Assembly (NCBI GenBank): GCA_008632985.1
Contig: QPGO01000117.1
Span: 186,001 to 250,000 of the forward strand
DNA length: 64,000 nucleotides
Direction: 5' to 3'
Origin: Psammoneis japonica
Taxonomy: Eukaryota
Shown piece by piece: positions 720 to 41,838 of the stretch. The position numbers and the translations under genes are program-made. The notes below the pieces were generated by a model that ran no database searches, was not told where the DNA came from, and saw only the letters and a list, made by a program, of their open reading frames with translations. Numbering within the stretch: the first letter of the stretch is position 1; every line of letters begins with the position of its first letter.

Positions 720-995
720 TGACAGGATTTGAACAGGATTTGGGTGCGCGCGAAGTGTCGCGCGCTGTTCAGTTTGCCGCGCACAGTTTTGTGTGCTTTA
801 GTTCCGTGCGTTCACGCGCGATGCAGTTTGCTTTCGAGCCACAAGGCTCACAAGGATGACAACAGTGGCCCGATTATACCGACTTGCACGTCTTTCGGCT
901 CCTGCAACGGTCTCTGAGCGGAGACTCATCTGCTGTTTAGACAGCAGCAAGGAGTTGTTGTTTGAATTCTTGCCATTTGCCTTCAATTTCTGTCA
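720..995 (+). repeat. 5' LTR (276 bp)
   Basis: Aligns without gaps to 7512..7787 with 19 mismatches, all transitions; TG...CA ends. Confidence 0.95.
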
Positions 996-1892
996 GATTA
1001 ACAGTCTTGCTCATTGTCAACCCATTGAGCAACCGCCATCGTCGTCGTTGATTTACCGACGACGCTGTTTCAATTCTGCGTGGACCTCCGCATGCATTCT
1101 ACATACATCGGCAAGTCTACGCGCGTTCAATGCCAGGCATCGGCAGGAATTTAACGTCACCGTCAAGTCTCCTTACCGCTGGATGTCTGGATTGATTGTG
1201 CCACCTTTGATCGCTGAAGACATGCATCAACGGTCACATCCAAGTCTGTCCTTGATCCTCATCCCTTGACATGCCCATTCAACGGTTAACGGTCAAGCAC
1301 CCTGCACATTCAAGGACCTTCGTCGCTGAAGACATGCACACACACACATCTTCACGGCCAAGGACTTGAACCCACTCTTCGGACTGCGGTTTTGCTGCCA
1401 CTCTACAAGCACACCGAGTCCATTGTACCTGATCTACCCCGGACTGCTGGTGCTCCACAGTTCTGCCAGGTCCACGAGGACAACTGTGAGAGCAAGCAGC
1501 CGTGATTGCAGCCTGCGTTGGGGCGAGGGTGCTTTCCCGCATTTGTTCGTTCGTCCACAGCGCCTGACGCCTACGTCAACTGGCCAGCCTGATCGGGAAA
1601 TCCAACCGACATAAAATGAGAATGGTTTGGGGGTCTTGTTCACCTCTAGTCAGCTCACCTGCAGGGGTTTACAACCCACTGCTCTGCTCGCAAGCAACCC
1701 AAAGCGCCGCTGGCTGCGGGTTCAGACGTGCCGGCACAACTCTACGGACCGGATAGGAAGTTCAGCACTTGACAACGAACGGGATGGCACAGCCCGGCGA
1801 CTTCTGATTTTAAGGTGGTTCAAGATTTCAAGTCAAGTCTGTTTCAAGTCAAGTCTGTTCTCACCCAAGTTTCAAGTCTGCCTTCGCTCCCC

Positions 1893-4800
1893 ATGGTTCT
1901 CACTCGTCAGCAACAAACCGATGGTTTCGAGCACGTTGTTGGAACCGTGCTTGCCCAAGGTGCTGGGAGCCCTCTTCGTTTGGCTTTGGCCCAAGACGGC
2001 ACGGACTCGCATCAAGAACTGTTCACGTTCATACCGCCCCAAATCGACTCGCTTGAGTGCGACAATGGCGCCAATGTGATCCCTTTGCCCCGCGGTTATA
2101 AGAACATGTCAGCAGCTCTAGCCAGTCTGTGCATTGTCAAAGCACACGAAGGTCTTGACGTTGCCAATGACTCCTCGTTGTTCACGCATGACGAGGTCCT
2201 TGCCTGCCGCCTCAGCCCCGACTGCATGTCTTCTGTGTCCATCGGCAGCTCTCCCCTCGCACCTCCGCATGTCACCAACCCGACCAAGGCACGCGACCCG
2301 GTGCGAGACTTCAAGCGAGGCATCAAGCGTGATCCCACCGCTTTCATGGCTCTCAAATCCGACAAGCAGTGGCACACTTGGCACACCTCACTTGTGGCAC
2401 AAGCCCGTGCCCAAGACGTCGAGTGCGTTCTAGACTCGTCGTACAAACCGACCAGCCCCGAAGACAAACTGCTCTTTGCTGAACAGCAAAAGCACATGTT
2501 CGCCGTCTTCGAACGCATCCTTCTCACCGACAAGGGCAAGGCTCTCATCCGCGAAAATGTGGGGTCTTCTGATGCCCAGACCATCCACCGCACCTTGTCT
2601 GAGCATGCGCTTGCCTCCACCCGCGCATCTGTCCAGTCCTCCACCTTGCTCACGCACCTTGCCACCACACGTCTTGGTGATGGCACTTGGAAAGGTCCGA
2701 CCCACGGGTTCATCCTTCATTGGCAAGATCAGTTGCGCAAGTGCGAGGCACTCATCCCGGCCAGTGACCACTTCTCTGAAGGACAGAAGCGCGTCATGCT
2801 CGAGAATGCCGCACACCCTGTCGAGGAACTCCATGCTGTCAAGAACCAAGCTGATCAGCATCGTACGCAGAGTGGCAAGAGCCTCACATGCGATCAATGC
2901 TGTGGCTTGCTCCTCTCCGCGGCAGCTCAATGCGACAGTGCGTTTCAACCCAAGACGACACCTCGAGCTCCCCGACGCGCCATGTGCGCACATGACGTCT
3001 GCTCTGAGGAACCGTCCGACGATGTGTTCTGCGACATTGACAGCGACATTGACGTCCTTCAGGCCAATGCTGCCTGCACCCATGGTCCCAGCCTCACCGG
3101 TGACCAATGGAAACGTCTCCCTCCCGACCACCAACGGATTTGGGATTCGTTGCCCCATTCCTCCAAGGCGATCATCCTTGAGCATTCTCGTCCGCCTCCC
3201 CGCAACCCGCGAGCCAGCAACTGCCATGAGTCCATTGCGAGCCAACCTTCACGACCAACGCCTTGGGAGTGACGGTGATGTCAACTTGTCCAACATGACT
3301 CCTGCTGACTCTGGTGACTCCGCTCCAAATGTGGGTGCCACCTCGGACAATCCCATCCTGGCGCACCTCACCAAGCGCAAGCCACTGCCACCCGGTGATC
3401 TGCAACGTCTGTTGTCTCCTAACCAAGCCCCCAACGCCAGTCGACCGGGGCCATCCGCCGCTCCCTCTACCCCGCCAGCTCCTGCCGATGACACAGAACT
3501 CAACGGCCGCACTTGCCACCGCGTCAACAACCACAATGTCATTTACTCTGCCTCTGCTCATCGCTCCACACGCACTGGCGCTCTAGTCGATCGTGGGGCC
3601 AACGGCGGCATTGCTGGCGACGACATTCGCGTCATTGCACGCACCTCTCGCCAAGTCGACGTTCAGGGCATTGACGACCACCAATTGGTGGACATCCCCA
3701 TTGTCACTGCTGGTGCCGTCATTGAGACCCAGCGTGGTCCCGTCATCGCCATCCTCCATCAGCACGCATGCACGGGCAAGGGCAAGACCATTCGTTCCTG
3801 CGGCCAGCTCGAATGGTGCAAACAGGATGTCAACGATCGCTCTGTCAAGGTGCCCAACGGCTTGCAACGTGTTGCCACTCCTGATGGCTGTGTCATCCCC
3901 ATTGACATCAAGGGCGGCCTGCCTTGTGTTGCCATGCGACCTTACACTGACACCGAATGGGACACCCTGCCCCATGTCATCCTCACCAGTGATGACACAT
4001 GGGATCCTTCCGTCCTCGATCACTCTGTCACTGATGACAACCAGTGGTGCGACGCGATCTCTGACCTGCAGGACGATCCCACTGCCAACCCATTTGACGA
4101 ATGCGGCAACTGCCGTCATCGTGTCGTTGTCAATGAGACCATCATGTCCGCTTCCTTGTCTGCCGATCACGCGTCTGCCCTCGATGATCATCTCATTCCG
4201 AACAACGACGTGTTCTACGAGTGTCATCTACACGCGATTGACCCCAAGGACGACGACGTTCCGCCCCCGGAGCGCACTGTGCAGCCCAAGGACCCCCCCT
4301 TCGAGTCTCTTTGGCCTTGCTTTGGCTTCCCACCTGCCGATGCGGTCCGTCGTACTTTTGACTGCACCACGCAGTGCGTCCGCATGCCCGCCGGTGCACA
4401 CCTCAGGAAGGCCTGCAAATCACCCAACCCCGCCCTTAATGTGCACCGCCGCAACGACCCCATCGCCACTGACACCGTTTGTGCTGACACCCCGGCCGTC
4501 GACTCCAGTTGCACCAGCGCCCAACTGTTTGTTGGCACCGAGTCTACCGTCACTGACGTCTGCGGCACCAAGACAGACAAGGAGTTTGTCAACACACTCG
4601 AGGATCAGATCCATGAGCGTGGTGCCCCATCCAAACTCATTAGCGACCGTGCTCAAGTTGAGATCAGCAACAAGGTGCTCGGGATTCTACGAGCCCTCTT
4701 CATCTCCAGCTGGCAAAGTGAGCCTCACCAGCAACACCAAAACTTTGCCGAGCGTCGACACCAGACCGTGAAGCGCATGGCGAACACTGTCATGGATCGT

Positions 4801-7564
4801 TTCGGTTCGCCTGCCCACACATGGCTGCTGGCGCTCATGCACATGTGCTTCACACTCAACCACACAGCATCCCCACGTCTCCACTGGCGCACGCCCCTCG
4901 AGACTCTCACTGGCTCCACCCCGGACATCAGCCCATTGCTTCGCTTTCACTGGTGGGAACCCGTGTGCTTCCACCTCGATGACTCCGATTGGCCGTCCGA
5001 ATCCCGTGAGTTGCGTGGACGCTTTGTTGGCATTGCTGAGCACGTCGGCCACCAGATGACCTTCAAGATTCTCTCTGACGAGACTCAGAAGATCCTCCAC
5101 CGGTCCAACGTACGATCCGCCACCACCGATCCTGCCGTTCGAAACCTGCGTCTTGATCCTCCTGATGGGGAGCCACCTGAACCCATCATCAAATCTTGCC
5201 ATGACGACAACCCCGTCGACTCTCCTGATGGGGAGATCAGGACACCCAAGATGCCAGTTTTCGATCCGCAAGACATCATTGGACGCACCTTCCTCATGCA
5301 GCCACAAGAGGACGGACAACGCCACAGAGCTCGCATCGTCAAGGCCGTCGAAGACCACGAATGGAAAGTGAACGGCAATCCCGAGCTCACTAAGTTCATC
5401 TGCTCTGTCAACAATGACGAATGCGAGGAAGTCCTTGCCTGCAACGACATCATGAATCACATTGAGCAAGAAGACGAAGACACCACTGTTTGGAAATTTC
5501 GACGCATCGTGTCACACGAAGGACCTCTGAAGCCTCATGACCCAACCTGGAAAGGCTCAAGCTGCAACATCATGCTTGAATGGGAAAGTGGGGAGATCAC
5601 GTCCGAGCCTCTTGCCATCATCGCCAAGGACAACCCCGTCACCTGCGCCATCTATGCACGAGAGAACGGACTTCTCGACACTGATGGCTGGAAGCGGTTC
5701 CGCACCATCGCGAGGCGCCAGAAGAAGCCATTTCGCATGGCCAACCAAGCCAAGCTTCGCTCCTTCCACACTGCACCTTGCCACAAGTGCGGATGCGAAG
5801 TTCCCCGGAACCACAAACACGCCATGTCACTAGACGAACACAACGGCAACCGCAAATGGGGAGATGCAACTAATCTCGAGATGGACCAACTCGGGGAATG
5901 CAAAGTCTTCCATGACTGCGGGCCCTTCGAGTCTTCCACTCCTCCTGCTGGACACAAGAAGATCCGAGTGCACCCAGTGTGCGACGTGAAACACGACAGT
6001 CGCCACAAGGCACAACTCGCAGCCGATGGGCACCTCACGGACGTACCCATCGACAGTGTCCACTCCGGAGTGGTCTCCCTCCGTGGCCTTCGGCTGATGA
6101 TTTTCCTGGCCAAACTCAACGAGTTGGAGACATGGGCCACTGACATTGGCAATGCCTGTCTTGAAGCCACCACCAAGGAGAAGCTCTACATTGCAGCCGG
6201 ACCCGAATTTGGCAAACTCGAAGGACACATCCTTGTCATCCACAAGGCCCTGCATGGACTGCGCAGCTCCGGTCTCCGCTGGCACGAGCGCTTCGCCGAC
6301 TGCCTGCGAGCTGAAGGCTTCTTCCCCTGCCGCGCCGAACCCGACATTTGGATGCGCAGGAACGGCGACCACTGTGGGTGCATTGCCATTTGTGTGGATG
6401 ACCTCGCCATTGCCATGAAGGACCCTCAATCTTTCGTCGACACTCTCACGGAAAAGTGCAAGTTCAAGCTCAAGGGTGCGGGACCCATTGAGTTCCATCT
6501 GGGTTGCGACTTTTCCCGGGATCCCGACGGCACCTTGTGCCTGTCTCCGCGCAAGCACATCGAGCGCATGGTCGACAGCCTGCACCCGACTGTTTGGGGA
6601 GAAACCCACCACCAACGCCCTGTCACCTCTGGAGAAGGGTGACCACCCCGAACTGGACACTTCCGAACTGCTGGAGCCCGATGGCATTCACAAGTTCCAG
6701 TCTCTTGTTGGTTCACTCCAATGGGCAGTGTCCCTTGGTCGAATTGACATTGCCACGGCCGTCATGTCACTCTCTAGCTTCCGAGCTGCGCCCCGTCAAG
6801 GCCACTTGGATCGTGCCAAACGCGTCTGTGGGTGCCTCTCCAAGATGCGACATGGCGCTCTCCGCGTTCACACGGAAGAGCCCGACTGTTCGGATCTCCC
6901 TGCTCTGGCCCATGAATGGATGCATTCCGTGCATGGCAAAGCAGAAGAGATGATCCCGAAGGACGCTCCACCGCCCCTTGGCAAGTTCGTCACTGCCACC
7001 CACTGCGTCAATGCAAACTTGCACCATTGCATGCTCACCGGATGCTCTGTCATGGGAATGCTCCACTTCCTCAACAAATTCCCAGCTGATTGGTTCTCTG
7101 AGAAGCAAGCCACCATGGAGACTGTGACCTGCGGGTCTGAATTTGTTGCTGCAAGGACTTGTGTCGAGCAGATTGTCGACCTGCGCATCACCCTGCGCTG
7201 CCTTGGCGTCCCGATCCACAATGTCAGTTACATGTTCGGTGACAACAAGTCGGTTGTAGACAGTGCCACCATCCCGCACTCCAAGTTACACAAGCGACAC
7301 ACCGCACTGTCATTCCACCATGTGCGTGAGGCAATTGCCTCTGGTTGCCTTGAGTTCCACTTCATCGAAGGCTCCCGCAACCCTGCTGACATTCTCAGCA
7401 AGCATTGGGGTCACTCCCAAATCTGGGACCTTCTCCACCCCCTCATGTTCTGGAACTTCATTCCATCCGAAGTTGAATCTGTTTCTGTGACTCCTCAAGC
7501 AAACTGGGGAGTGACAGGATTTGAACAGGATTCAGGTGCGCGCGAAATGTCGTGCGCTGTTTAG
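1893..7564 (+). pseudogene. Copia gag-pol polyprotein, two frameshifts (~3230, ~6580) and systematic Tyr->Cys/His changes
   Basis: Overlapping ORFs 1815..3272 (gag; FKRGIKRDP), 2476..6642 (PR-INT-RT) and 6476..7564 (RT end, RNase H); RT catalytic motif reads CVDD (TGT at 6391-6393); last ORF runs into the 3' LTR. Confidence 0.9.
7501..7511 (+). other. Polypurine tract
   Basis: aaactggggag directly abuts the TG of the 3' LTR. Confidence 0.6.
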
Positions 7565-7787
7565 TTTGCCACGCACAGTTTTGTGTGCTTTAGTTCCGCG
7601 CATTCACGCGCGATGCAGTTTGCTTTCGAGCCACAAGGCTCACAAGAACAACAACAGTGGCCCGATTGTGCCGACTTGCACATCTTTCGGCTCCTGCAAC
7701 GGTCTCTGAGTGGAGACTCATCTGCCATTTAGACAGCAGTGAGGAGTTGTTGTTTGAATTCTTGCCATTTGCCTTCAATTTCTGTCA
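7512..7787 (+). repeat. 3' LTR (276 bp)
   Basis: Direct repeat of 720..995. Confidence 0.95.
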
Positions 7788-8300
7788 CAAACCCCACCAC
7801 TCCTTCAACCTTGTGATGAACGGCCTTCATGCGCTGTCCCGCACAATTGTGTCAAATGCTTTTGCCTTCTGCATCTTGTAGATCATGTCCCGTTTCATGC
7901 AGTGGTTGCATTGCTTTCCCCAGATTGCCTTGTCCTTCTCTGATGTGGGTTTGCTTGATGGATGTTCTGGCTCCTCCACTTTGTTCTCCTGCCTCAGAGA
8001 TGCCAGTGCCTGCATTTCTGGCCTGAACATTCTTCCAACATGCTCACTCATTTTCTTGTGGTCTCCATGCAACCATCTGCCTGTCAACGTCACTCTGCAA
8101 TGGTGTTGTGCACACCCACTCCTTCAAATCTTTCATGCCTGCTCCACACTCAGTTGTGTCCTTGCCCATGTCAATGTTTGTTCCAGTCCAGCACAACTTT
8201 GCCCCACCCTCTTTCAGCAGACTCTGAACAGCTTCCTCACAGCAAGGTCCTCAGAGACTGTTTCTTTGCCTTTGTCTGGCCAGCACATTTGTCACAATCC
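7788..8300 (-). pseudogene. Degraded gag fragment of a second, different copia-like element, cut off by the 3' LTR
   Basis: ORF 7827..8093: EEPEHP...DKAIWGKQCNHCMKR...QKAKAFDTI resembles diatom copia gag (IWGKEYD.Y.KR...QKAK.F..I) with Y->C/H. Confidence 0.5.
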
Positions 8301-8416
8301 AATGATGGCACAAGTTGCGCCCTTGGATTCTTGATGACTTCCCAGCCAGCCCTTTTTGACTTTTGTGTTGGGATTTCATGGCTTGCTGACAGGTGTGTGC
8401 TCAGCCTCACCAGCCC

Positions 8417-9800
8417 TCAAACTTCCAGCATGGGGACCACAAACACATTTCCATTTCCATTGCTGCCATTGCTGTGTTGACTGGGTGCAAAAGCCAAAAA
8501 GTTGTGAGCACAAGACCCGCAACTCAACATGAGTTGCAATTGTAAATTTGCCACATGATCATCAACAATCATCAGTGCACCATTCACTGCAATGTTGTCT
8601 GTCTGTCCTGTGAAAACTGCCTCACAACCTGATGATGTTCCAACACTCAGCTGCTTTTGCCTTGTGGGTTGGCTTGCCAGGCCACTTTGGATTGAGCCAA
8701 TTGTGTTTCTGACCTGTGTCCATTTGTTGCACATTTCTGAGACTTGCAAATGGCAATGGAACCATTGTTGACACTGACTTGAAAGGCATCTTCACTTTCT
8801 GCCTTCTTGTTGTCCCCAATGGCAGCAGTGGAGCTGTCCAATGAGATGGATGTGGTTGACCCCGCCTGCTGCACTTCACAGCCTGGTGACAATTCTGTTG
8901 TGGTCGTGCCATCTGAGTCCTTGCCAAGCTTTGTTTTTGTGAGACCAGAATGAGTCAAATGGCTGTGATTGGACTTTCTGATGTTTGTCACAGCCCATGC
9001 TCCAACCACAGTCCCACTGCCATCACCACCCAAGTCAACTGCCGGACCAAATTTGTTGCCAGGTTGCACTTCTCCAATCAACAAATTCTTGCTCAAAATC
9101 TCATCATCCATTGTGGCACATCCATCTGAAAGCTGAAGACCAAAACACAGCTCCCAATTGCAAGGACCTGACCATTTTCCAACAAAGCCAGAGGGCTGCC
9201 ATTGCAGGTGCCATCATCAGACAAAAAGACATCATCATTGGCATGCAGCCACTTGCGCTCATCATCATCCACAAAACCACCAACTCTGCCCAGCAGGACA
9301 ACCCACAGGTGGTTGGATCACCCGCTCCCTCCCAAAGTGTTTTGAAACTCCACCTGTGCCTTCTTGCCAATCTCCTCCATGTCACTGTTCCTTGGGATGC
9401 ACCAACCTCACCAGAGCTTGGCCATCTCCTGACAAAAGAGCCACCATGATGTGGCCAGTCACACACCTGTCTCATCAGCAACCATGGCTGGTTGCAACCA
9501 TGAGCCCTCAACAAGGCTGCCATTGTGCACACACTGCCAGCAGCACAGACGTTGCTCTGCACAAGATGTGCTCCACCCAGAGGAGAAAGATCCACCACAA
9601 CTCACCCAAAAAGGCTTCTCACCTCCTCTTGGACCAAGTTGGCAAACCCCAGAAAACAGGTTGCTGCCCAACAAAATTGCTTTGCTGAGTGGCTTCAGCA
9701 CAAGGCTCATTTGATCAGGAGATGGCACCACAGAAGGGGGTGATGGCAGGGTGGTTGGATTTTGTGACACAGGTTTGCCACCCTTGGCTGTCAACAAAGA
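8417..9800 (-). pseudogene. Degraded host-like gene with FG-GAP/integrin-type beta-propeller repeats
   Basis: Fragments GNKFGPAVDLGGDGSGTVVGAW and SISLDSSTAAIGD resemble FG.SV.LS.DG..VAVGA repeats; broken frames; TA/CG-poor. Confidence 0.4.
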
Positions 9801-9828
9801 GCCTCATGTCATCATTGCGACCACTGCA

Positions 9829-9930
9829 GCTGTGGCAACAACAATGCAAACAACCAAAATGGCAAGCAGGCAAGACACAGCTGTGGTGACAACAGCACAA
9901 ATGACCAAAATGACAAGTGGGCAAGACACA
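9829..9930. repeat. 51-bp tandem repeat x2
   Basis: gctgtggcaacaacaatgcaaacaaccaaaatggcaagcaggcaagacaca versus gctgtggtgacaacagcacaaatgaccaaaatgacaagtgggcaagacaca. Confidence 0.85.
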
Positions 9931-11944
9931 CAATTTGGCCCTCTTGTTGCCCCAGTCCAGCCATCACTGCAGCACTGTCTTGAGGAAGTTGATGCAAACC
10001 CGCTGCAGCCAATGATGACATTGATGCAGTGGATGAGGTGTCTAAACCATTGCCCTCTTCTGGACATTTGCAACCATTGCTCCATCAGACTCCATGCATT
10101 TTGAGGCTGCAACTGTCCAATCGAAGACAAACGCTGCAGCAAGAACTTTTGAAATGTGCCACTTCACTTGTCATGGTGGCATGTCACATGCCAATTTTTC
10201 ACATGCCTGCCACCAGCCATTTTTCCAGCACCCACTGGTTCAAAGCTGGCGGCAATGAAAATGCCAGAAAACACAGGTGCAAAATGGTGGTGGCATGAGA
10301 AAGTTTTGGCCAACAAGAAGGAGATTGGTCTGGCAGCAACTGAGAGAATGAGATGGCTCAAGCAAAACTCAAGAGCAGCTCTGGCCCATCATCGCCCAAG
10401 CAAGGAATGCTGCACCAGGGTGCTCATGTGCAGAGCAAGTGTTTGGTTCCAGAGAACCTTTTGAGACTTTCAGGAAGCAGCTGTGCAATTGTTGTTCCAC
10501 CATGACAACGTGTTTCTCATTGTCAAATTCTTGGTGAGCTGTCAAGGAACATGCAGTTGATCTGCATTGACAAAACTGCGTTGATGCATCTGTCCTGTGG
10601 AGTGACAAATTTCAGTGAACAGAAGTTCTCTGTTTCTTGAATCCACTCTGTGGTGGATTGATGGCAGAGATGTGAAATGTCAAATCTCAAAAATAAAAAG
10701 TGTGGCTTGCGATGAGTTTTTCAATGGATTGCGCAAACTGTTTTTTGTGTGAAAGAGCTGGGCTGCAGTTTTCACGAGGTCAACAATGAACCACAAAATG
10801 GAACAATGCTGTGGAATGGGATTCATGTTGACGTTGTCGTCCATCTTGGTGTTGAGAAAGGGTCAGTTTCCCTTCGTCGTGCCCCGAGCCACAAGTCTTG
10901 AAGCCTGCGATGCACCCGCTCGACTTGAACATTTTTAAGTTTTGGCTGGAGAGAGACTTTGACCTCCCAACAGAGAGCAGAGCCACAAAATGCACAAGAT
11001 GTGAGCATCATTGGTCTCCTGCTCTTTAAACCAATGTTTTGCAAGAATGCAGCAGATGTGTTTTGTTCATGGTGTCAGGCATTTGAAGGTGGAGCTGACT
11101 TTTCACGGAGCACCATCGCACAGGAGGAAAGCGTGAGGGACAATGCTTGGTGACAGCTCCGCAACTGTCGCGACTCTCTGCTTGTGACCCCAAAAAGTTG
11201 TCGGAAACTTCGCATCAGTGTGACATTGGTCGGTTGGAAATGCATTTTGGTTGAAAAAAAGGGTTTTTGGTTTTTGTGACATTGTGCGTGGAAGCATGAC
11301 GTTGGGCCTCACAGCAGCCATGGGAGGGGACTCCGCAGAAATCACGCAGAAACGAATTTTTTTGGATCGAAACGAGAGTCACCTCATTCAACAGAGGGTG
11401 TTCAGAGGTGCTTGGAACGGGGCACAACTTTTTCATTGGCCTTGCATTTGTCGAGATTGAGAGTGATGAAGTGACCGCCATTTTCCCGCACTTTGCCGTG
11501 CAGCCACGACTGAAAAAATTCGAGTTTTTCGCACGTTGACTCATTTGTAGTTTTGGAATGTTGTTGTGGCTTTAAAGATGCCAATGGTGACTGACATCAT
11601 AAGTACAAGCTCTCGCGTCTCTCACAATGCATCTACCAAGTCACCTGACTGCGCAGTTGGAGAGAACGTGAAACAGCACTTTTCTCGATTTTGCGGCACT
11701 TCACCGTGTAAAAATCAACTGAGCACAAATGCACGCCATTTTCGCGGTGAAATTAAGGTCACATTTTCACAAGTGTAAAGAAATCTACCTTTTTTATTCT
11801 TTCCACTTGTCTGTTCTATGTTTAGAATTCCCCGTCACCCTTGGAGCAACAATCCAACTCGCCTCTCTCACAAGGTCACGTTCACTCGTTGTCTCCTCTG
11901 TTCTCGTGTTCGCATCCTTCTGCTTGTCACCATGGAGTCCTCTT

Positions 11945-12720
11945 CTAAAGTTTCATGAACATCCACATTTTCTGATTCCTCTTCTGTTTGCAAACCAATG
12001 CAAGTCGTTTCGTTGTCCTCCATCCCTTTGTGTCAATCTCATCGTCTTGGGAGTTGGCCAAAACAGGATCATCCAGAGGATGAACGTGCGCATCTCCATT
12101 GTCGATCGACATCCACTCGTGCTGACACGCTTCTTGCACCACCAATGGGTCCTTTGGATCTGGCCGAAGCCATCTGGTTGCCAAATCCTTGGCCGCCTCC
12201 GAAACATTGGCAAAGGCATCTGGCGCAAACGTCACTTGACCTTTGGTGGCTCCAGCAGTGTCACCGTCAAAAGGAGGAGTGCCACTTGGCAGACACAGAG
12301 AATGACTCCCAATGAAAACATGTCAGCCTTTTTTCCGCACTTCCTCATCCAGCAACTGTGTGATGGCATCACAACACTTTGGGTGCAAAGCACAGTGGCA
12401 TTCCACAAAAGGTCTTCAGGAGGCCCTCATCCTTTTTGGCCAATCTCCACAGTCTGTCAGCTTGATGCCAACACTGCATCAGAGTTGCAATCAATCATTG
12501 GAACATTTTCTGGCTTCAACTCACTGTGAAGGACCTGGCGGTCCTCGCCAAGATGTTGAACAGCACTGAGCAATCGTCTCATGACTCGGCGGCTTTCAAC
12601 TTCAGAGTTCTTGCCTTTGGACACGATCCGATCAAGAAGGTCACCACTGTGCAAAATCTCCATGAACTGTGGGCAAACTGTCATTTGAGGGAAGGGCAAG
12701 AGTCAGTGCTGCCATTGTTT
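11945..12720 (-). pseudogene. CAMK-group Ser/Thr kinase pseudogene
   Basis: GDLLDRIV...LHSELKPENV (HRDLKPEN), LKTFCGMPLCFAPKVL* (TFCGTPxYxAPEVL), VSEAAKDL...DP...HEWM; stops and frameshifts. Confidence 0.8.
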
Positions 12721-14240
12721 CACACATTGCCAACAAAAGATGGCAGGCATGACCAGATGCGTTCCCGCTGCACTCACCAAATGAGAACACTGGGTTTGCT
12801 GCTGCAAAACACACCGTGCCGCTGAAGGCATGATTCAATTCCTGCAACATGGTGGCTTTGGCTTGAAGTGTGGTGAATCCTCAGTCAACAGGGTTTGTTG
12901 TTTGGCTGGAATGCCCTTGACGGCAAACTCTTGTCCCGTGCGACAGCGGTGCATTTGCCAATGTGACGATCTGAATGATTGTGTGTGAAGACGTTGTTGT
13001 CGTCAATGAGCTTGCAACAAAAAGAAAGAAAAGAAAAGGGCTCTTTAGTGTCTTTGCAGAAGCAACATGTCTCCGTGACAAACAGAGAATCAATCACACC
13101 TTTTGGCATTGCAAAGCCAAACCGACAAGATCGGTTCCTGCCACAGCACTCGCATGTTCCTGTGAAACACAACTGTGAAAAGGTGGTGCAAACAAGTGAC
13201 AAAAGAAAATGACATTCGTTTCAATGACTGTGCTGTCAGAGACTCACCTTTGTTGAAATTCTGGAATGAAAGTGGGGTCGCTCACACTTCCTGTCATTGC
13301 TGTTCTGTTGAATCAGAAGAGTTGCATCCATCCATTCTCCATGTCACACCCGATCGTAAAGTGTCTTGGCACTCTTGAGACGCAACATCCTCTTGCAGAT
13401 GACTCGTTTTGAAATCTTCTGGGTGTCCATGATTGAAACAATGAATCTTAGAACAGTTCTGTTGAGTGCTTTGTGTGGAGTAGATCCGACATGGGAAACC
13501 CTGCAGTCCGCACGTGCCCTTCCTGACATTGTGAAAATGTCCCTTTTGCAACGCAGTGAGCAGATTTCCGACTTGCATGCATGCCGATGGGCCATCCTTT
13601 GACTTTGTTCCAATCAGGCGTCTCAGTTCTGCCTCATGAAAGTGCCATTTGGTGATGGCATGTTGTCCAAACGAGTTGCGTGGACATCCGCAAACATCTC
13701 AAAATCATTCGATGAGATTGCCATCAAAAGTTGTGCTTCGGTGCACCCCACCTAATTTGATGACGGCGGACACGATGGCATCAAAAGTGCAACTTTTTGT
13801 GATGATCCTGAGGGTGCGAAAGCGATTTGGTGAGAAACGGCAGGTTGATTTGGTTGTCGCTTGGCGAAGGCTGTGGTGGGAGATGGAAGCTCGGACTTGC
13901 GCGTTGTGAACGCACGTTGAGTCTTACGAATCGTGATCATGACACTTTTTTTTTGTCACGACGATGACGACCGCCATGGTCCATTTGGGCAACGAGGTTA
14001 ATTTTTCTAAAAAAAAACAGCTCCTGCGTGATTTCTACGGCGTCCCCACCCACAGCAGCGAGCACAACGATGCCGTACGCCGTGCGGTACAGTGCGACAC
14101 AACATTCGCAACCGCGCCATTTATTTTTGATCGCAGGATGAGCAACGCGAACCCAATCCAATCCCATCTACGCATTGTCAGACACTGCATCCTTTTGCGA
14201 CTCCTGACAACACTTAGATCACCTTACATGCAATGACGAA

Positions 14241-15641
14241 ATGCCGAGAAAGGTGGCTTACATTCACACTCTCTTGCGGAGCTGCTGTTTCTACGAGGTT
14301 GCAGATCTCGTTCAAGATGACCCTGATCAAGCAGCGGCTCTCAATTCGGCGAAAAGCAGCCCACTTGCGGTGCTGGTCAAGAGCGCAACATGGGGAACTG
14401 TCCAGACAGCCATCTGCCACAATGATCCAACACATGTGGAAGGCTTTGAAGAAGCGTTGGATGCGCTCGTGACAGCGTGTCCGGAAGCTGTGGCGCATCG
14501 CAACAAAAACGGTGATACGCCTCTTATGCTTGCCTGTCGTGACGGACACATCGCTCATACCCCGATGTTTGCTCAGCAAAGCTCTGCATGTTGTGACCTT
14601 CTCAAATGGGCGGTGGATCGAATGATTGACGCTTGTCCCGCAGCGGCAGCTGTTCGGGATAGCGAAGGCACTCCACCCATTGATCACGTTCTGGATCAGG
14701 GTTACGGTCCCATGGATGTCGCTGTCAAGTTGGTCCGTGCCCATCCCGACTCACTTTTACAGGGGAGTAACGGGTTTGGCGGCAGTGTCGCACCTGTGAT
14801 GGTGGGCAACATAAACTCGGCAGACTGTTGCCTCTGGGAACGTGTCAAGACACTCGTATCCTTGGTTCCGTCCTCAGCAGTGACTGCACAATTTCCCCAC
14901 TGCAACGCGATCCAGCAGTTATGGTTTAAGATTCGAAACCGCCCTGACTATGTTGCCAGACATCAACCAGGGGTTGGTCTGCCTCACATCCCAGATTGGC
15001 TCTCAGACGACATGATTGTCGACATTGCCAACAAAATGACGTCATCAGACGGTCAAGACCACGAATTCTATTCCAGGGCATTGGATTTGCTCTTGTTTCT
15101 ACTCAAGGCAGGATACCACAATAGAACGACTATTCCAGCTGATAATGAGGAAGATGACTTTTCTGCTGCCCATGCTGCGGCTGGACTCATCATTCCCTCC
15201 GAAGCCCTCCGCATGATAGTGACACTCTTTCCGGATCAAGTTACTTCCATCGACGACAACGGGCGGCTACCACTGCACATTGCTGCGGCCGGGCCGGGCC
15301 ACAGTCGTGGGTTTGACGAAATTGATCATCCCACTGGCGTGGAAGTCTTGGTGCAAGCCGATCCGGATGCCGTGCGGGTTCTGGACCGGAGTGGAAACCT
15401 ACCTCTCCACTTGGCCCTGCAGAATAGGCACCTACCTCCTTCATTGGGTCTTGGAATCAAGGCCTTGGTACAGGCGGACCCCAGGACGCTCCGGATCGCC
15501 AATGGTACTGGTGCATTTCCATTCTTGCTGGCCGCCACCGCCGCGCGTGACAGAGACGGCCTCGACTTGGTTTATCAATTGCTCAGAGCTGACCCCGCTG
15601 TCATGCGTCTGGCAACTCATGGATCACACGGACAAGATTAG
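14241..15641 (+). CDS. Ankyrin-repeat protein (466 aa)
   Basis: NGDTPLMLAC, NGRLPLHIAA, SGNLPLHLAL motifs; intact ORF. Confidence 0.8.
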   Translation: MPRKVAYIHTLLRSCCFYEVADLVQDDPDQAAALNSAKSSPLAVLVKSATWGTVQTAICHNDPTHVEGFEEALDALVTACPEAVAHRNKNGDTPLMLACRDGHIAHTPMFAQQSSACCDLLKWAVDRMIDACPAAAAVRDSEGTPPIDHVLDQGYGPMDVAVKLVRAHPDSLLQGSNGFGGSVAPVMVGNINSADCCLWERVKTLVSLVPSSAVTAQFPHCNAIQQLWFKIRNRPDYVARHQPGVGLPHIPDWLSDDMIVDIANKMTSSDGQDHEFYSRALDLLLFLLKAGYHNRTTIPADNEEDDFSAAHAAAGLIIPSEALRMIVTLFPDQVTSIDDNGRLPLHIAAAGPGHSRGFDEIDHPTGVEVLVQADPDAVRVLDRSGNLPLHLALQNRHLPPSLGLGIKALVQADPRTLRIANGTGAFPFLLAATAARDRDGLDLVYQLLRADPAVMRLATHGSHGQD

Positions 15642-17017: not shown

Positions 17018-17789
17018 GGCGTTTGCTGTAGTTGCAGTTGTCAGGAAAGAGCGCTCTAAAGGTAGCTTGGATGCACCGGTATGTGATGTGGTGTTGGTAA
17101 GTCACGACTTTAAGTCACACAACACAACATGAGATAAAATGAATGAGGTGGTGATGATGGATGAGGGTGAACAACGGTTATCCGCTTTCGGCCGGGATGC
17201 TTCAGTCGTGTCCCGCCCGCCCGCCCGCCCGCGCCGCACTGCTTTCCGTCCCAGCTTCATGCCACGTGTAAAAATTAACCCCCCGTTTTTAACCAAATAC
17301 CCACCTCGATCGACTAACAGTATCCAGATACGTAGTTCAGCACACTTTTGGGGGCCTAGTAGAATGGGGGTGAACGTTAGTTACTGACCAATCACTGAAT
17401 GTTGACTCTCGCACTTGCCCGTGTGATAAAGGTGCTCCACGAAAAGTTAGTTCTATTTTGAAATACCAGATACCACGAACAATACATACCTATTACATTC
17501 TCGCAAGGCATCTGTTTAAAGAGTATGAGACTGATAATGCTCATATCTTGTGTAATTTGTGGCTCTAGCTGGGGTCAAAGTCTAGCTTATTCTACCAAAA
17601 TTTTGAGTCGAGTGGGTCATACGGGATTGAAAACACGTGACTCGCTGTACGATGAGGTGAAATTGACTCGTTCTCGACACCGAGATTAGATGACAACATC
17701 ATCACAAACCGATTTTATGGCAATGTTCTACTTTCTAATTTGTCTTTGACCTCGTGAAAACTATATCTGACCTCTTTCATGCTATAAAT

Positions 17790-19620
17790 GGGTGAAGCAA
17801 TCCACGAACACTCACTCACAAGCCGCGCACTTTTCCATTTTCAGATTTGACATTTGTGTCTTTGCGATCAAGCATGGGTCCTTCAGGGTTGCAAGCCGGA
17901 AACAAGATGTTGTTGACAGTTTTCCACCAAAAAAGTTGCACATTTCAATGAAGCAAAGAAAACATGGCAGTTCTGCAATGTCCCGTTGACAACAAGCTTG
18001 CTGTTTGCCGCCAGAGTCGTTGTTGCGCGCATTCATCATGACATGGTCGCCCACAAAAAACTCCTTCGGCTCATCGCGCAAAAATTGTGGATGGTGATGA
18101 CGTCGCGAGAAGAGGTTTTGTACACAATGTTGTGGCACAAGTGCACGTGTGATGTCAACACACCACGCCCGCGGCTCCAGGAGTGACCCCTGTTTCACGC
18201 AGTGGCCCACGCCCGGCCGCCCGCCCCCATCCATGTCTGCATGCCTGCATGCTGCATGAAATCAAGTTTCAGTTGCAGAACTTTTGGAGTCATGATTCCA
18301 GCACAACAGCTTTGTGTTCAACAGAGCTGCCACTCTGCAACACCTTTGGTGCCCTCAAAGACCATGTGTTGCCATTGTTGAAAACATCTGTGCAGCACCC
18401 AGCACAAGAGCACACAAAAAGCCTTGCTGCCACACCTCAGCAGCGGGGAGGCAAGAAAAGCTTGTTGCTCAAAGGCAGTGCTGCTGGAGGCTGAAAAGGC
18501 AAAAAAAAACATTTGGTTAACAACAAGAAGAAAAGCTTGAGCATTTTTGTGCAAAGTGTGAGCAAATGAACCACAGGATCATGAAAAAAGGGCCGAGTTA
18601 GCATGCAGTTGAAAAATCAAGAAAACACTGTGCGATTCTTTGTTTTTTCAGGTGAAGTGCCTCCTTTGCAGTGCTGCCTGCAGAGAAACATGCCAGCTGA
18701 TGAGCTCCAAGCTGCCAAAAAGCTTCACCTGACAATGATGATGAAATGTGGTGCCGCTCTGCCACTTGTTCAGCTGTCCACGAGTGATGAAACCCCCAAC
18801 AATCAACAACGATGGAAAGATCTGGCATCTGCACAGCACCACAAGGAGGTGTTTTGTGGTTGATTGTTGAGTTGCTCTGAGATGGAATTCAGGGCAAACT
18901 TGTTCACCAGGATGGGCCAAAATGAACGGAGCACTTTTTGTTGTTGCGCATTCTTGCACAGCGCAAACTCGTGCAGCTCGTGCTTGTCGATTTGGCTGTC
19001 ATGCTGCCCTGAAAGAGACCAAAACACACTGGCCATCACATTGGTTGTTAGAGTTTTGTTTCCCACCAGCACTGAAAATCATGCAGGCATTGTGCAGAAT
19101 TTTTTTGTCATGCTCAACAGGAGGAAACTTTGTCAGCTCTTTTCCCCCCTGTGCCCCCGGCCCACCAGAGTCATGTGTTTTCTGCAAAAAGTTGAAAAAT
19201 GGCAACTCGGGCCTTTTTTCATCCTGCAGTTCACTTTGTCCCTCTCTCCTTTCAACCATTCCTTTTTGAAGCAGCTTGTGTGTGTGTCCAACACACAAAA
19301 TGAGCAGAGAGCAACACCCTTCGAGTGCCGCACCCTGAGCTCGTTGGGGTGCTGACAACTCCTTTCCAAGCCAACCCTCCTGCACCCCTGTGCCATTCTC
19401 TTGGCACACTTGCATTTACAGCCCACAGCCACAAGGGGGAATGCCCATAGCCTGATGCTTTTCCATCCCTCCACTGTTTGCTGCAGTGATTTCGCTGCTC
19501 TGTCACAAATGGTCCGCTTGTCTGGTGAGAGGAGAATGAAGACCCTCGCGACCTCCCACGCGCGATCAAGAAACGAGCACGCGCGCACGCACGCACGCCG
19601 TGCAACGTGACCTTCAACCA
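17790..19620. other. TpA-depleted degenerate block (unidentified repeat or gene relic)
   Basis: Only about 6 TpA in ~1.8 kb by eye; many overlapping C/H/Q/W-rich spurious ORFs; flanks have normal TpA. Confidence 0.75.
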
Positions 19621-22712: not shown

Positions 22713-23099
22713 GTGTGGCTGCGGTCGAAGAAAGCAGACCAGGAAACAGCGTTGGCGGCGCGAGCACATGACACACGATGGAGCCGGAGAACTTTACAGC
22801 AGGGTACGGTAACTCTTTGGAGTGCAGGAACTTCTGCCATCCATGTAAAACTACACAGGATGCTTTTTTGTTCAAGTCAACAGCCAAGTTTCTATGGCTA
22901 GCCAGTGCCTGCCGGGACCACAGACATTAGATGTACGAAAACGGAAAGGGTGCGCTGACTGTTGGCAATGATTGAAGCAGTGTCAGCAAAAGATTTTGCG
23001 GTGAAACGGGGAAGATTAGAGCAATGATAATTTATCAAATGTGTGCATTGTACAAGACTCTAATCATCTCGAATCTCTAACGAATGAAATGAACCGTAG

Positions 23100-23977
23100 A
23101 TGCCAACTGATTCAGAATCAAAGCGCTGCCACTTGATGAGCAACACTTGATGAGCAAACAGATGTCATGGTCCATGAGCTTCGCACACTCCTGGCAAGCC
23201 CAAATGAGAACCACCAAGAATGGTTGTGGTGGCTGAGCCACAGAGTGACACAACAGATCACAACTCCAATCAAGTTGCAGTGGCTGTCAATCATGACATT
23301 CACAAAGATGAGAGAAGGCAACATGGTGATGTCGTCAACAGCAAAATTGTGACAGCTTGAGATGATGTGGTTGTTTGAAGGGTGCTTGGACAGTCGTCAG
23401 TGCAAAAACATGCAGAATGTGCAACAATCCCAGCTCTCCTTGCATTTTTCAAAAGCAAAAAGATGATGTTGATTGACATGTCATTTCTCCACACTTGTGT
23501 TGGTGTGGACAAAGGACATGTGCCGGCCGAGACAGAGCGGAGAACACATTGGCCACCTTGCCATCTTTTTGTTTCTGCCAATGTTGGCCAATGCTTGTGT
23601 GGCAAGTTTGGAAAGTGTGAAAGCAAAGCATTTTTTGTGTCATCACCTTGCTCTGCCATGCATTCTTCAGCACAGATCAGAGAGTCTGTGTGCCTCTTCA
23701 CACCGCAGCAGCGGGGTTGTTTCGCACTGCTGCCACACAGAAGCAGCAGACGCAGTTGCGAGCACCTCTCAAGCCACAGCAAGCTCAATCTTTTCTTTTG
23801 ACAACGTTGCATTGCACGTTGATGAGTCGAGAGCAAGTTTTTCGCTTGCAGCCCGTGCCACCCAGCCTTGCGGCTCTCTGGCTGAAGCTCCATTTCCGGG
23901 TTCCCCAGAATTGTTGCGAGCTCCAGCTTGAGGTCTGGTGCTCGTGGCTTGCGCAACACCGCACAGAGAAAAAAACA
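23100..23977. other. TpA-free block directly upstream of alpha-mannosidase copy 1
   Basis: No TpA seen between ~23099 and 23999. Confidence 0.8.
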
Positions 23978-26900
23978 ATGGCGCTGTGGAGGACCGCGGT
24001 AGTTCTTTCATACCTTTATGCAGCAGTACAGGGAAAGTTTAGTGCTAAACAGGACGATAGTGTGCTCAACATTCATTTAGTCCCTCACACACATGACGAT
24101 GTTGGATGGCTCAAGACGGTGGAACAGTATTTTTACGGCCTCAACAGCACCGTCTCGCAAGCCTATGTCAGGTCCATTCTAGACACTGCTATTCAAGAAT
24201 TAACAAAAAATCCCAACCGCACCTTTACCTATGTTGAAATGAAGTTCTTTTCAATGTGGTGGGAATTACAACCGGACTCCATAAAAAAAAAGGTTCGAGA
24301 GTTGGTGAAGAACGGGCAGTTTTCCTTTGCCAATGGGGGGTGGTGCATGCACGACGAAGCCACTACGCATTACATGGGGATGATTGATCAAACAACATTG
24401 GGTCATTCGTTTTTGAAAAAGGAATTAGGCGTTGTTCCTACAGTGGGTTGGCAGTTGGATCCCTTTGGGCATTCTGCAACACAAGCGTCTGTGCTTTCGG
24501 GTCTTGTTGGATTTGATGCATTGTATTTTGGTCGAATCGACTACCAGGACCTGGAATTGAGGAAGAAGACACAGGAATGTGAAGGCTTGTGGTCTTCCTC
24601 GCCCAATTTGAAAGAAACGGTGTTTTGGGGTCTTACCGGCAGCTTTAATGGGAACTATGGTCCGCCAAAAGGTTTTAATTTTGATATCCATAGCTCGGAC
24701 ACGGCACTTGTAGGATTAGGCCATGACCCTCTGAAGCATCGAATCAAGGATTTCTTAAAACAAGTAAAAATACAAAGCGACCGAACCAAGGATAACAACG
24801 TTATGCTGACCATGGGGGAGGACTTTCACTACGAACGAGCTGACAAGAACTTCAACAACATGGACGCACTTATTGACGCGGTTCTGCAGTTCCAGGCATC
24901 TGGAGAGATTGACGTTGCCACCATGTTTGGACCGCGATTCAGCTCCATAAATATTTTTTACTCGAATCCTTCCTACTACACCAAGCAGAAATTTGAATGG
25001 ACGATTCGACAGCGAGCTCTTGGTAATCTGGATGATAACATAGCCGCTGTCAGTGCTGCGTCTCCTTGGTCCGTCAAACGTGACGACTTTTTCCCGTACG
25101 CTGATTGTCCGCATTGCTTTTGGACGGGATACTTCACGTCACGTGCTGGTTTAAAACGTTTGGAACGAATGGCTTCGTCGTTTCTCCAAGCTGCTCGACA
25201 AATCGAGGCCATGCCAGATAGCAATGACTGCGATTGTTGTCGTCCCCTTGCGGAACTCGAAGATGCGATTAGCGTGCTGCAGCATCACGATGGTGTATCT
25301 GGAACGTCGAAACAACATGTTGCCAATGATTATGCCAAGAGGGTGCAATCGGGAATCGACATTGCGTCGAACTATGTGGGAAGCAAGTTGAAGAGATTGC
25401 TTGGCTTGAACGATTCCATTAGTGAGCCAAAATTTTGTCAGTTGTTGAACGAAACAACGTGTGGCGACTTTGAGGTGCGTAGGTTTGCACATTTGTCTTG
25501 GTCTATCATCATCGTCATTTTCTTCTTCGTTCTCACTCAAAGCATCTTATTTCGCCACAACATTGCAGGTGGCAGAAGACGGCACACAACGGGATTTGAT
25601 TGTTGTAGTGTACAACAGCCTCGCGTCATATCGCTCGGAAACCATAGGTATTCCAGTGCCAGTACAAGGCACATACATCGTTTCTTACGCTGTGGAAACG
25701 GGCGCTGAAGACCCAAGGTATATTCAAGTCACAGCGTCGCTAATCCGTAAGGATGATTCAGACTCCTCTGAAAAGCATGTCTTGTTCTTCAACACCGGGC
25801 CGATTGATCCAGTCGGAGCCAAGGCATTCCGAATTCAGTATGTGGGCGGTGTTGAAGACAAGCACCAGTCAACGAACGCAGGCGGTATTCGCAACTCGCG
25901 TGTGACGGCAACAAAGAGACGTGGGGTCGATCATGACTCTCTCTCCTCCGACGGCGACACATTCAGCGCAACCAATGGCATTGTGACTGTATTTTTTGAG
26001 AGGTACGTTCGTTTGCATACATCGAAGACGTCTAAACAAAGTCTCACTTTTGATCATGTTGCTTCTAGATCCACTGGCGCTATTAGAAGCATCGGGTCTG
26101 CCGACGATGGTTATTACCTCAATGTTACCCAGGATTGGGGGTATTATACCGCCTTTGATCCGGCAAACGACAAAACAAATTCTACCGATACCCAGGTTTC
26201 TAGTGCCTACGTTTTTCGACCCTCTACCCCCAAGCAGAAAATGAAGGTGATAAGTCCCCGTCGGCAGGCGGTGGAAGTATACAAAACAAAGGCTGTGACT
26301 GAGGTTCATGTAAAATTTACGCAACCTTGGATTAAGCAAGTGACTAGGCTTCTCCAAGGGCAAGACTATGTCGAAGTCGAATACACAGTTGGACCCGTGC
26401 CAATCGATGACAATGTTGGAAAGGAAGTCTCGACACGCTATTCTACGCCCATTCGGAGCAACAAAATCTTTCACACAGATTCCAATGGAAGAGAGTTTTT
26501 GTTGCGGAAACGGAGTTATCGACCAACATGGGAGCTTGATGAGACTGAGTTTGTTGCAGGAAACTATTATCCTGTCAATGCAGCGACATATATCGAGGAC
26601 GAAGAAAGTTCCTTTTCTGTGGTGGTTGATCGGTCTCAGGGTGGGGCCTCCTTGATCGACGGCGCGATCGAGCTCATGGTGCAACGTCGTACCATTGCCG
26701 ATGACAACAAACATGCGTTGAGGGAACCCATGAACGAGACCGATGGAGGTATCACGCCTTGTCCACCGTACGGTAATGCGACTCGTATTGGACAAGGAGT
26801 GGTAATCAAAGGGAAGCACCGAATCATGATTGGCAAGGGACGGAGCGGTGCCGCGATGGCCCGAGCGCAAATGGACAAGGCGTTTGCCGAACCGATGGTG

Positions 26901-27368
26901 TTCATGTCAACTATACCTCCACAAGCATCTGAATTCTCCGGCTCGAGGTCCTTTTCGGCGTTGCAATCAGCTCTTCCGAAGAATGTCATGCTTGTCACGT
27001 TCTCCCGCCTTCATGATGAGCCACACACAACCTTCTTGGTGAGACTGGGCCATCAATATGGGAGTGACGAAGATGTAGAAATGTCCAAACCCGTTGAAGT
27101 TGATATGAGCGATTTGTTTGCAAACTACACTGTTGTGTCCATAAGGGAGAAAACGCTATCAGGCAATCGCGATTATGCTGAATGGAAGCAGAATCGGTTG
27201 GCTTGGGTGGCCGCACCTGATAATTCGAAGGATGATCAACATGGCTCAACAAGTAGTCGTAACGGTCTCACCATCCAGCTAAAGCCAATGGAGATTCGAA
27301 CCTATGAGGTGCGTGTAGACGAAAGAAGAAATAGTCGTACTGAGCATTTTGACGAAGTTGAAAACTAG
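23978..27368 (+). CDS. GH38 lysosomal-type alpha-mannosidase, copy 1 (exons 23978-25474, 25569-26002, 26069-27368)
   Basis: Signal peptide, HTHDDVGWLKT, WQLDPFGHS, QHHDGVSGT, AGNYYPVN; GT-AG introns of 94 and 66 bp. Confidence 0.93.
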
Positions 27369-27707
27369 AATACGATACAAGCTGGCGTTTTATTGAGGTT
27401 AGATATTAACTCCCTAGAAATGTCTGCGTCTGTAAGAGGCAGACGACCAAATGTTAATGACACTTGTGTTTCAACCTGTGAAATGTCGGAGTCGGACCTC
27501 AAAGTTGTCAAAGGTTAGATGCGAGTGGCGGTCCTATTCACTGGTCAATCACAGCTTCCTTTGACGAAGCTTCCGTCGCTATTTGGGGGGGCGTCTGCGG
27601 TGTCCGGTTTTTCACTTGTCACTTTTGCCCCTTTCTTGACGAGTCTTTGAATGCCCGACGATGTCAAACGAAGCACGTGAAGTGTTCTTGGTTGTCTCCG
27701 GTCTGGT

Positions 27708-28133
27708 TTAGACAGAATCCTGTTCCGTATCATCTGAAGATTGGTTTTGCTGTAGTCGTCTTGTAGAATCCGTAGCCGGTGGAACAGACGCTCCAACGAT
27801 ACACCGTCCGAGGGTGTAAATAACTGACCCATCTGGTTGTGCTTCTCGCCATTTCTGACAGGTCGGTCTCAAGTAGACAAACGCATTCAAAAATCCTTGG
27901 AGAGGGTAGAAACAATGAGCTAAGATGGATACGGCGAAGAGAATGGGGCCCTTCGCATTGAGCTCGCTGACAAGGATACCGCCAAAGTACCAAAGGAAGC
28001 AGTTGATGTAAATCGCACAGTACAAAATGGCCTGCATTGCAACCTGCCTCAGCAGCTTTTGGTTAGCATCTTGGACGGAAGCGTGGAACGCACATCTTCG
28101 ACTTTGGCCGATTTGTACTCTGAAAGATTTCTG
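27708..28133 (-). pseudogene. 5'-truncated 7TM receptor (cAMP-receptor/GPR157-like C-terminal helices)
   Basis: VAMQAILYCAIY...FYPLQGFLNAFVYLRP; the upstream part is replaced by the TA-free block at ~28134. Confidence 0.65.
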
Positions 28134-28191
28134 TGAGCATGTGGAATTGGGATCATTGCATTTTGCCACAGCTGCTCTGTCATCTCACCTC

Positions 28192-28437
28192 CATTGCAAC
28201 TGAACTCAGAATCACCACTTCACCTCCCTTTCCATTTGCCACTTCTGAATCCACACCTGCCATCTCCTGCAATGTCAAACCAAATGATCACACAGGGCAT
28301 TGTCAGTTTTGTTGCATTGCAGCCAAATTCAGAATCACCGCTTCACCCCCCTTTCCGTTTGCCACTTTCTCCATCCACAGCTGTCATCTCCTTCAATGTC
28401 AAACCAAGCAATCACAGGGCAATGTTGGTTTCATTGT
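28192..28437. repeat. ~123-bp tandem duplication near the left end of the block
   Basis: Units start at ~28192 and ~28315 (cattgca...cagaatcacc...caatgtcaaacca...cacagggca); several TG/CA swaps. Confidence 0.75.
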
Positions 28438-38219: not shown

Positions 38220-38243
38220 TGTGTGTGTGTGTGTGTGTGTGTG
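38220..38243. repeat. (TG)12 microsatellite
   Basis: Direct reading. Confidence 0.95.
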
Positions 38244-38436
38244 CCCTTGGCACGGGTCCTTTTTCAACAGCTGTGAGGCAGCAGGTGGTTGATCATGTGT
38301 ACAGCACAACAGCCACTCTAAAAAGGTGCTTTTTTATGGAAAAACGTGAAATTGTCTTCTGGCAAAAAAAAAAAGCAATCTCTCCAAATCTGATGATTCA
38401 TCAAGATCAACACCCTAGCTCTAGAGGTAATAGAAA

Positions 38437-41400: not shown

Positions 41401-41838
41401 TTCTCCAGTTCGATATCCTTTTCGGCATTGCAATCAGCTCTTCCGAAGAATGTCATGCTTGTCACGTTCTCCCGCCTGCACGATGAGCCCAAGAAAACCT
41501 TCTTGGTGAGACTTGGCCATCAATACGGAAGTGGCGAAGATGCAGAAATGTCCAAACCCGTTGAAGTTGATATGAGCAATTTGTTTGCAAACTACACTGT
41601 TGTGTCCATAAGGGAGAAAACGCTATCAGGCAATCGCGATTATGCTGAATGGAAGCAGAATCGGTTGGCTTGGGTCGCGGCACGTGATAAACTTAGGGGA
41701 GAGTTGCATGGCCCATCAGGCAGCAAAGTCCTCACCATCCAGCTAAAGCCAATGGAGATTCGAACATACGAGGTGCGTGTAGACGAAGGAAGATATACCG
41801 GTAGCTATTCCGAGCATGTCGACGAAGTTGAAAAATAG
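38437..41838 (+). CDS. GH38 alpha-mannosidase, copy 2 (exons 38437-39939, 40034-40467, 40536-41838)
   Basis: Paralog of copy 1 at an offset of 14465 bp; same motifs; introns of 94 and 68 bp. Confidence 0.93.

Follow-up and report, generated by a model that had tools for sequence, protein, structure and literature searches.

A TpA-erasing mutational scar in a Ty1/copia retrotransposon and neighbouring non-genic DNA of the diatom Psammoneis japonica

The two long terminal repeats (LTRs) of a retrotransposon in Psammoneis japonica (GenBank assembly GCA_008632985.1) differ by transitions only, which raises the question of whether TpA dinucleotides were destroyed there in DNA, how far the loss extends, and by what process it arose. 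The window analyzed here is a stretch of 64,000 nucleotides (contig QPGO01000117.1, positions 186,001 to 250,000, forward strand), and positions are counted from its first letter. The initial annotation had read the LTR pair as a record of DNA-level change on both strands. Upon realignment of 720-995 with 7512-7787, its counts were reproduced: 276 bp, no gaps, and 19 mismatches, all of them transitions. Three mismatches involved a TA in one LTR (positions 770, 876, and 878), six a CG (761, 779, 807, 810, 890, and 919), and eight made up TG-versus-CA sites (741/742, 857/858, 934/935, and 948/949), leaving two outside the TA and CG contexts (755 and 855).

A host alpha-mannosidase duplicate in the same window was used for comparison. 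Its mismatches comprised 97 transitions and 88 transversions, and the LTR proportion (19/19 vs 97/185) differed clearly (Fisher p = 1.2e-5). TA- or CG-linked contexts accounted for 17/19 LTR mismatches vs 56/97 of the control transitions (p = 0.009). About 52% of random single transitions in the LTR (142/274) make or destroy a TA or a CG, which leaves the context count, taken by itself, as evidence of moderate strength only. No target-site duplication (TSD) brackets the element, its flanks being TGCGC and CAAAC, and position 755, one of the two out-of-context mismatches, segregates among sister copies (A in 66% of summed depth). The LTRs may therefore come from two sister copies, as the annotation had cautioned, and the element is suggested to be a recombinant of two copies; inter-element LTR recombinants are known for the CoDi elements of diatoms (PMC2806351). 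As a clock the LTR pair is imperfect, and it proves DNA-level change less strongly than was first thought. The reading itself (TA loss in DNA, on both strands, not by ADAR) held, with support that comes mostly from outside the pair.

The features are collected in Table 1. Direct terminal repeats with TG...CA ends and a copia reverse transcriptase (RT; PF07727, Pfam) with an integrase-like region upstream (motifs; 57-69% identity to full-length homologues) identify the element, as judged from sequence, as a Ty1/copia LTR retrotransposon of the CoDi type. Protease and integrase were assigned from motifs and homologue alignment, and RT from Pfam. The missing TSD lowers the reading as a single intact insertion and leaves the family assignment untouched. 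CoDi elements of diatoms have LTRs of 153-844 bp and the order PR-IN-RT-RH (PMC2806351); the element shares the TG...CA LTR ends, a length inside this range, and the same order. Most of its homologues consist of a single ORF of about 1850-1900 aa. The putative primer-binding site would, we presume, pair with the tRNA-Asn anticodon arm, with priming by a half-molecule as our guess; no tRNA genes were found in the window.

Table 1. Coordinates of the element and of the neighbouring features in the window.
Feature	Position	Strand	Details
5' LTR	720-995	+	276 bp; termini TGACAG...CTGTCA; 4 TA remaining
Putative primer-binding site	996-1006	+	Directly after 5' LTR; TA kept, in TTAA, the best-surviving context
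5' leader	996-1892	+	18 TA, 20 per kb
gag-like ORF piece	1893-3272	+	Tyr 0.4%; frame break after
pol piece	3274-6579	+	Protease-like, integrase-like, then RT (PF07727, about 5944-6579)
RNase H-like piece	6602-7471	+	Other frame; second frame break near 6580-6600
Purine-rich tract	7496-7511	+	Before 3' LTR; nearly the same in a sister contig ahead of its LTR
3' LTR	7512-7787	+	3 TA remaining, each within TTTAG
Flanking block	7788-11500	.	Nearly without TA; 8001-10000 also nearly without CG
TA-erased inverted-repeat copy	10658-11266	+	615 columns; partner 17277-17871
Broken protein-kinase pseudogene	11945-12702	-	PF00069, E = 3e-7, below gathering score
Alpha-mannosidase copy 1	23996-27390	+	Negative control; copy 2 at 38461-41860
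10-kb depleted block	28100-38400	.	TA rho 0.01-0.07; CG rho 0-0.22
Weak Plavaka transposase match	35870-36484	-	E = 1.3e-4, below gathering score

Unlike its usual CoDi-type relatives, the element is stripped of tyrosine (0.3-0.4%, vs 2.9-4.5% in the best 120 of 515 homologues, none of which falls below 1.5%). At conserved columns of the alignment with these 120, 32 of the 35 tyrosines were altered, to Cys (21, TA>TG), His (9, TA>CA), or Phe (2), and the YVDD motif of the RT reads CVDD at 6391. Conserved columns of Trp (0/22), Pro (0/40), and Asn (0/17) were intact. A change from A to G in the middle of the codon was found for Tyr at 21/35 columns, vs Asn 0/17, Asp 0/52, Gln 0/19, His 1/23, Glu 1/31, and Lys 3/37, and AA was not depleted (rho 1.07-1.25). 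The A>G and T>C changes are confined to TpA and occur on both strands. With a TA rho of 0.11-0.16 and about 90% of TA gone at a CG rho of 0.84, TpA loss in the element is near saturation. The excess of Cys over His (21:9, p = 0.043), a sense-strand excess, is attributed to Tyr codons always being TAY. TA density is 20 per kb in the 5' leader vs 5-5.5 per kb in the coding part, and sister copies have many more TA in the leader.

Sister copies were contigs of four runs of one sample, possibly the assembly's own source, aligned on 560-1400. In run X1, 98 of 109 variant places were transitions. At 28 of the 40 best-supported variant rows examined (of 109), the sisters carried TA where the element has TG (15) or CA (13). 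Together with the tyrosine columns of the intact homologues, these copies establish that TA was lost and not gained. Most contigs of the smaller runs had TA, which shows that there are sisters with fewer mutations. Within the sister LTRs, T at 770 made up 97% of the depth and C at 807 made up 99%; TA was present at 775-776 and 866-867, where both LTRs of the element have TG, and also at 756-757 in a loose end of the sister contigs. Position 866-867 is polymorphic in the family, with TG, TA, and CA all present. With about 14% of CpG lost in each LTR, roughly 0.2 TG/CA sites are expected from CG, whereas the chance of such a site is 25-40% per ancestral TA; judged by these rates, TA is a much more likely ancestor than CG for most of the four TG-versus-CA sites.

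The loss extends beyond the element. Depleted blocks were delimited from the TA/CG profile of the window, and the rho values were 0.16 (element), 0.04 (other depleted blocks), and 0.55 (genic DNA) for TA, and 0.84, 0.26, and 0.97, respectively, for CG. Downstream of the 3' LTR, a run of 1500 bp (8543-10043) is free of TA. The kinase pseudogene sits within a further TA-free run of 1100 bp (11946-13046), showing that host-type sequence can be erased too. Of the two arms of the inverted repeat, one is erased and the other rich in TA: opposite the partner's 35 TA, 25 are TG/CA and 1 is kept, and at 66% identity the arms are too diverged for a test of flanks. Most depleted blocks lack a family match; 29 of 32 ORFs searched, nearly all from these blocks, gave no Pfam match at E<=0.01. 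Weak matches to FG-GAP_2 and DUF2975 were disregarded, and one to Tertiapin (E = 0.049) was taken as chance. An ankyrin-repeat ORF that borders on a depleted block has intermediate TA in its 5' part (14208-15000; rho 0.40 over 14001-15000), and depletion is possibly spreading into it.

The mannosidase copies (3.4 kb, 94% identical, 14.5 kb apart) contain 133 and 131 TA, 109 of them shared, and were spared though the DNA between and upstream of them is TA-erased. Duplication alone is therefore not sufficient here, as far as one pair can tell and given that selection could mask an effect. A 903-bp TA-free run (23097-24000) ends sharply at the start of copy 1; copy 2 has a different upstream region with TA present. 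The first 1600 columns of the duplicate hold 9 mismatches and the rest diverges by about 10%, which suggests gene conversion or assembly collapse in the 5' half. TA loss is seen restricted to foreign, mobile, or dead DNA, and host genes are spared. Among the genes lies a lone TA-free run of 964 bp (57356-58320) with a 57-bp tandem repeat (57506-57619) and no Pfam match. The squalene-hopene/oxidosqualene cyclase family gene at 58859-61063 (PF13249) is an ordinary host gene. The nearest named relatives of a neighbouring host gene were from Amphora coffeaeformis (71%) and Seminavis robusta (64%), which points to a raphid pennate diatom as the host.

The loss of CpG seems to be a separate matter. 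Hits per site were estimated as about 2.4 for the TA of Tyr codons vs about 0.15 for the CG of Arg codons, and given intensities some 16-fold apart, the loss of TpA and the decay of CpG are better regarded as two distinct processes. The CpG class of LTR mismatches would fit ordinary decay of methylated CG; in Phaeodactylum, DNMT5 methylates CG of LTR-copia elements (10.1101/2021.06.11.447926). The naive LTR divergence is 7.2%, vs an out-of-context background of about 1.0% (0.13-3.8%, two events). As the annotation had expected, dating by LTR divergence is inflated, here near 7-fold (2-57), and would give ages too old in such genomes. Protein-based repeat annotation would be degraded as well, by the change of Tyr to Cys or His.

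Survival of TA depends on its flanks. Surviving TA were enriched in YTAR (chi2 p = 2e-15; p = 3e-4 against intact relatives), with survival of 0.53 in TTAA, 0.28 in CTAA/TTAG, 0.26 in CTAG, 0.03 in ATAC/GTAT, and 0 in ATAT. Where both strands offered the same flank class, changes were symmetrical (21:19). At sites with TAY on one strand only, the TAY strand was changed 22:9 (p = 0.03), and 31:16 (p = 0.04) when the inverted repeat (5:4) and a metagenome relative described below (4:3), neither supportive alone, were added. In the older blocks, TAY-strand products exceeded TAR-strand products by 16 per kb vs 1.9 in genes. TA followed by a pyrimidine is thus preferred, the strand-resolved test being modest. 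By sequence, adenine damage in TAY equals thymine damage in RTA, and the pattern fits either equally.

Relatives of the element were also collected from metagenomes, as the best 80 of at least 456 confirmed loci (one of the two seeds contained Tyr). Their TA rho was 0.34-0.98 (median 0.69) vs 0.11 for the element. One locus, L059 (1-2759, a copia fragment), had 13 of 23 conserved Tyr altered (7 Cys and 6 His), vs 20 Cys or His at 2292 such columns in the other 79 loci (p = 7e-20), and a TA rho of 0.31-0.34. It belongs to a different family (65% nucleotide identity to the element) and a different sample, and represents the same process half done, although one locus in 80 gives no estimate of prevalence. 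The flank bias of its surviving TA was not significant (p = 0.34). Five loci (L003, L004, L022, L075, and L080) were strongly depleted in CpG (rho 0.14-0.28) with Tyr intact, so in other samples CpG decays with no loss of TpA. Most terminal repeats of the 80 loci turned out to be overlaps from assembly, and they could not serve as LTR-pair controls. The degenerate LTR pattern had no matches in the metagenome contigs, none of 29 candidate relatives in viral contigs was confirmed by alignment, and no look-alike stretches were found in the other genomes scanned.

An explanation has to cover the direction of change, its occurrence on both strands, its TpA specificity and near saturation, the restriction to non-genic DNA, and the reach beyond retro-transposed DNA, all of which were observed. 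On balance we lean towards a TpA-specific A:T to G:C process that acts after insertion in silenced chromosomal DNA, is TadA/ADAT2-like, and is not guided by homology. Mobile or dead DNA, presumably silenced, would be mutated in the chromosome after insertion, and TpA would be hit on either strand independently, giving TG or CA. The lesion would be adenine deaminated to hypoxanthine by a TadA/ADAT2-like enzyme, recruited presumably via silenced chromatin and not via DNA-DNA homology. Slower decay of 5-methylcytosine at CpG would proceed in parallel, and each LTR would be hit on its own, producing the TG-versus-CA sites. Adenine deamination in silenced DNA is the likeliest chemistry, and the TadA/ADAT2-like enzyme is a candidate. 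Engineered TadA-derived editors prefer YAC or YAY>YAR (PMC12528748); the A-to-G outcome and the favoured YA with a following pyrimidine resemble this. The natural DNA-editing ADAT2 of amphioxus prefers GAA and TCG, not TA (PMC10354150). In the accessible text of these two papers, action of TadA/ADAT2 on DNA is engineered or in vitro, with no link to transposon defence.

Products and flank pattern would be identical if thymine were instead oxidised to 5-hydroxymethyl- or 5-formyluracil by a TET/JBP-type enzyme with an R-T-A preference, and the product mispaired with G. This route seems improbable: nothing in our analysis points to 5hmU in diatoms, and we know of no report of near-saturating mispairing from a 5hmU-type base. 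In dinoflagellates, 5hmU is tied to transposon silencing (PMC11572971). Rated a shade lower is resynthesis of silenced DNA by an error-prone polymerase (Pol iota or eta type), for instance after repair of deaminated 5mC, with G placed opposite T. Such polymerases have A/T hot spots, and the losses of TA and CG share blocks; however, AA is intact, which led to rejection of the WA signature of Pol eta, the LTR pair has no transversions, and TA was nearly eliminated in the element at an almost ordinary CG content (rho as given above), which means that the loss of TA does not follow that of CpG. No better placed is a RIP-like process, triggered by homology, linked to the sexual cycle, and of opposite chemistry. 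Repeats are indeed the main victims and the mutation is dense, but the linked mannosidase duplicate was spared, with the proviso on selection already given, and the chief target in Bigelowiella natans exists as a single copy and mutates in clonal lines (10.64898/2026.01.13.699255).

ADAR- or APOBEC-like editing of the retroelement's RNA or cDNA while it is reverse-transcribed, with LTRs from two edited sisters, would suit the lack of a TSD and the segregation at 755, and is nevertheless very improbable. The changes are not the sense-only A>G of ADAR: T-to-C is about as frequent as A-to-G (13:15 at the sister-polarised sites), which is impossible from editing of sense RNA. Moreover, depletion is not limited to the transcript and passes both LTR borders, through the kinase pseudogene and the Plavaka-like block; that flanking DNA-transposon-like and pseudogene blocks are TA-erased excludes RNA editing. 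The annotation's claims of change in DNA and on both strands, and its argument against ADAR, were thereby substantiated. That the family is simply biased in composition, or that the pattern is an assembly artefact, is hardly credible: TA is mildly under-represented in most genomes and the genes here have a TA rho of only 0.55, but relatives lie far above the element, conserved tyrosines including that of YVDD were destroyed, and sister copies in the same organism retain TA. UV photoproducts at TA, which give mainly A>T and are not repeat-restricted, were rejected on these grounds.

The mutational scar is strongly supported as real, with adenine deamination and its enzyme as candidates. More speculatively, and less probably than not, the process could be a dedicated diatom genome defence based on a natural double-strand DNA adenine deaminase with a TAY target and guidance to silenced chromatin, one that several diatom populations possess (as L059 would indicate) and that has a common origin, across SAR, with the B. 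natans process. If true, a deaminase defence would strip nearly all transposon tyrosine codons, and the TAY motif would help in finding the natural enzyme; deamination of adenine in DNA has otherwise been met chiefly in engineered base editors. A literature search, covering few subscription papers, found no TpA hypermutation in diatoms and surfaced the B. natans preprint alone, and the term "TpA" is absent from the accessible text of the CoDi paper (PMC2806351). A targeted TA-erasing pattern has so far been reported in print for one unrelated alga only. With the present case, TpA hypermutation would reach beyond the single rhizarian preprint into diatoms, and beyond viral inserts into retrotransposons, there near saturation.

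Among known systems, repeat-induced point mutation (RIP) of ascomycetes changes C to T, chiefly CpA to TpA, is triggered by duplication and most efficiently by linked repeats, and is premeiotic and dependent on RID/DIM-2. The scar resembles RIP in being dense, transition-only, dinucleotide-specific, post-insertional, and directed at repeats, with inflated LTR divergence. Unlike RIP, which makes TpA, it destroys TA and enriches TG/CA, and a linked near-identical gene duplicate was spared (one pair, selection possible). The closest likeness is to B. natans, a rhizarian whereas the present host is a diatom, in which integrated NCLDV and virophage DNA undergoes TpA hypermutation (10.64898/2026.01.13.699255, preprint). 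There too, A>G and T>C occur only at TpA, giving TpG or CpA on both strands, and foreign or silent DNA is targeted; mutation-accumulation lines acquired the same spectrum de novo, at an about 1000-fold rate in clonal lines. An ADAT2-like deaminase is proposed and unproven there, and is likewise a candidate here. The accessible main text of the preprint does not contain the words diatom, LTR, CpG, trinucleotide, or context, and its supplements may hold flank data. Its viral inserts are partly depleted (rho 0.45), vs 0.11-0.16 for the LTR element and 0.04 for the older blocks, and its transposons are implicated by composition only, whereas here an LTR element is itself near saturation.
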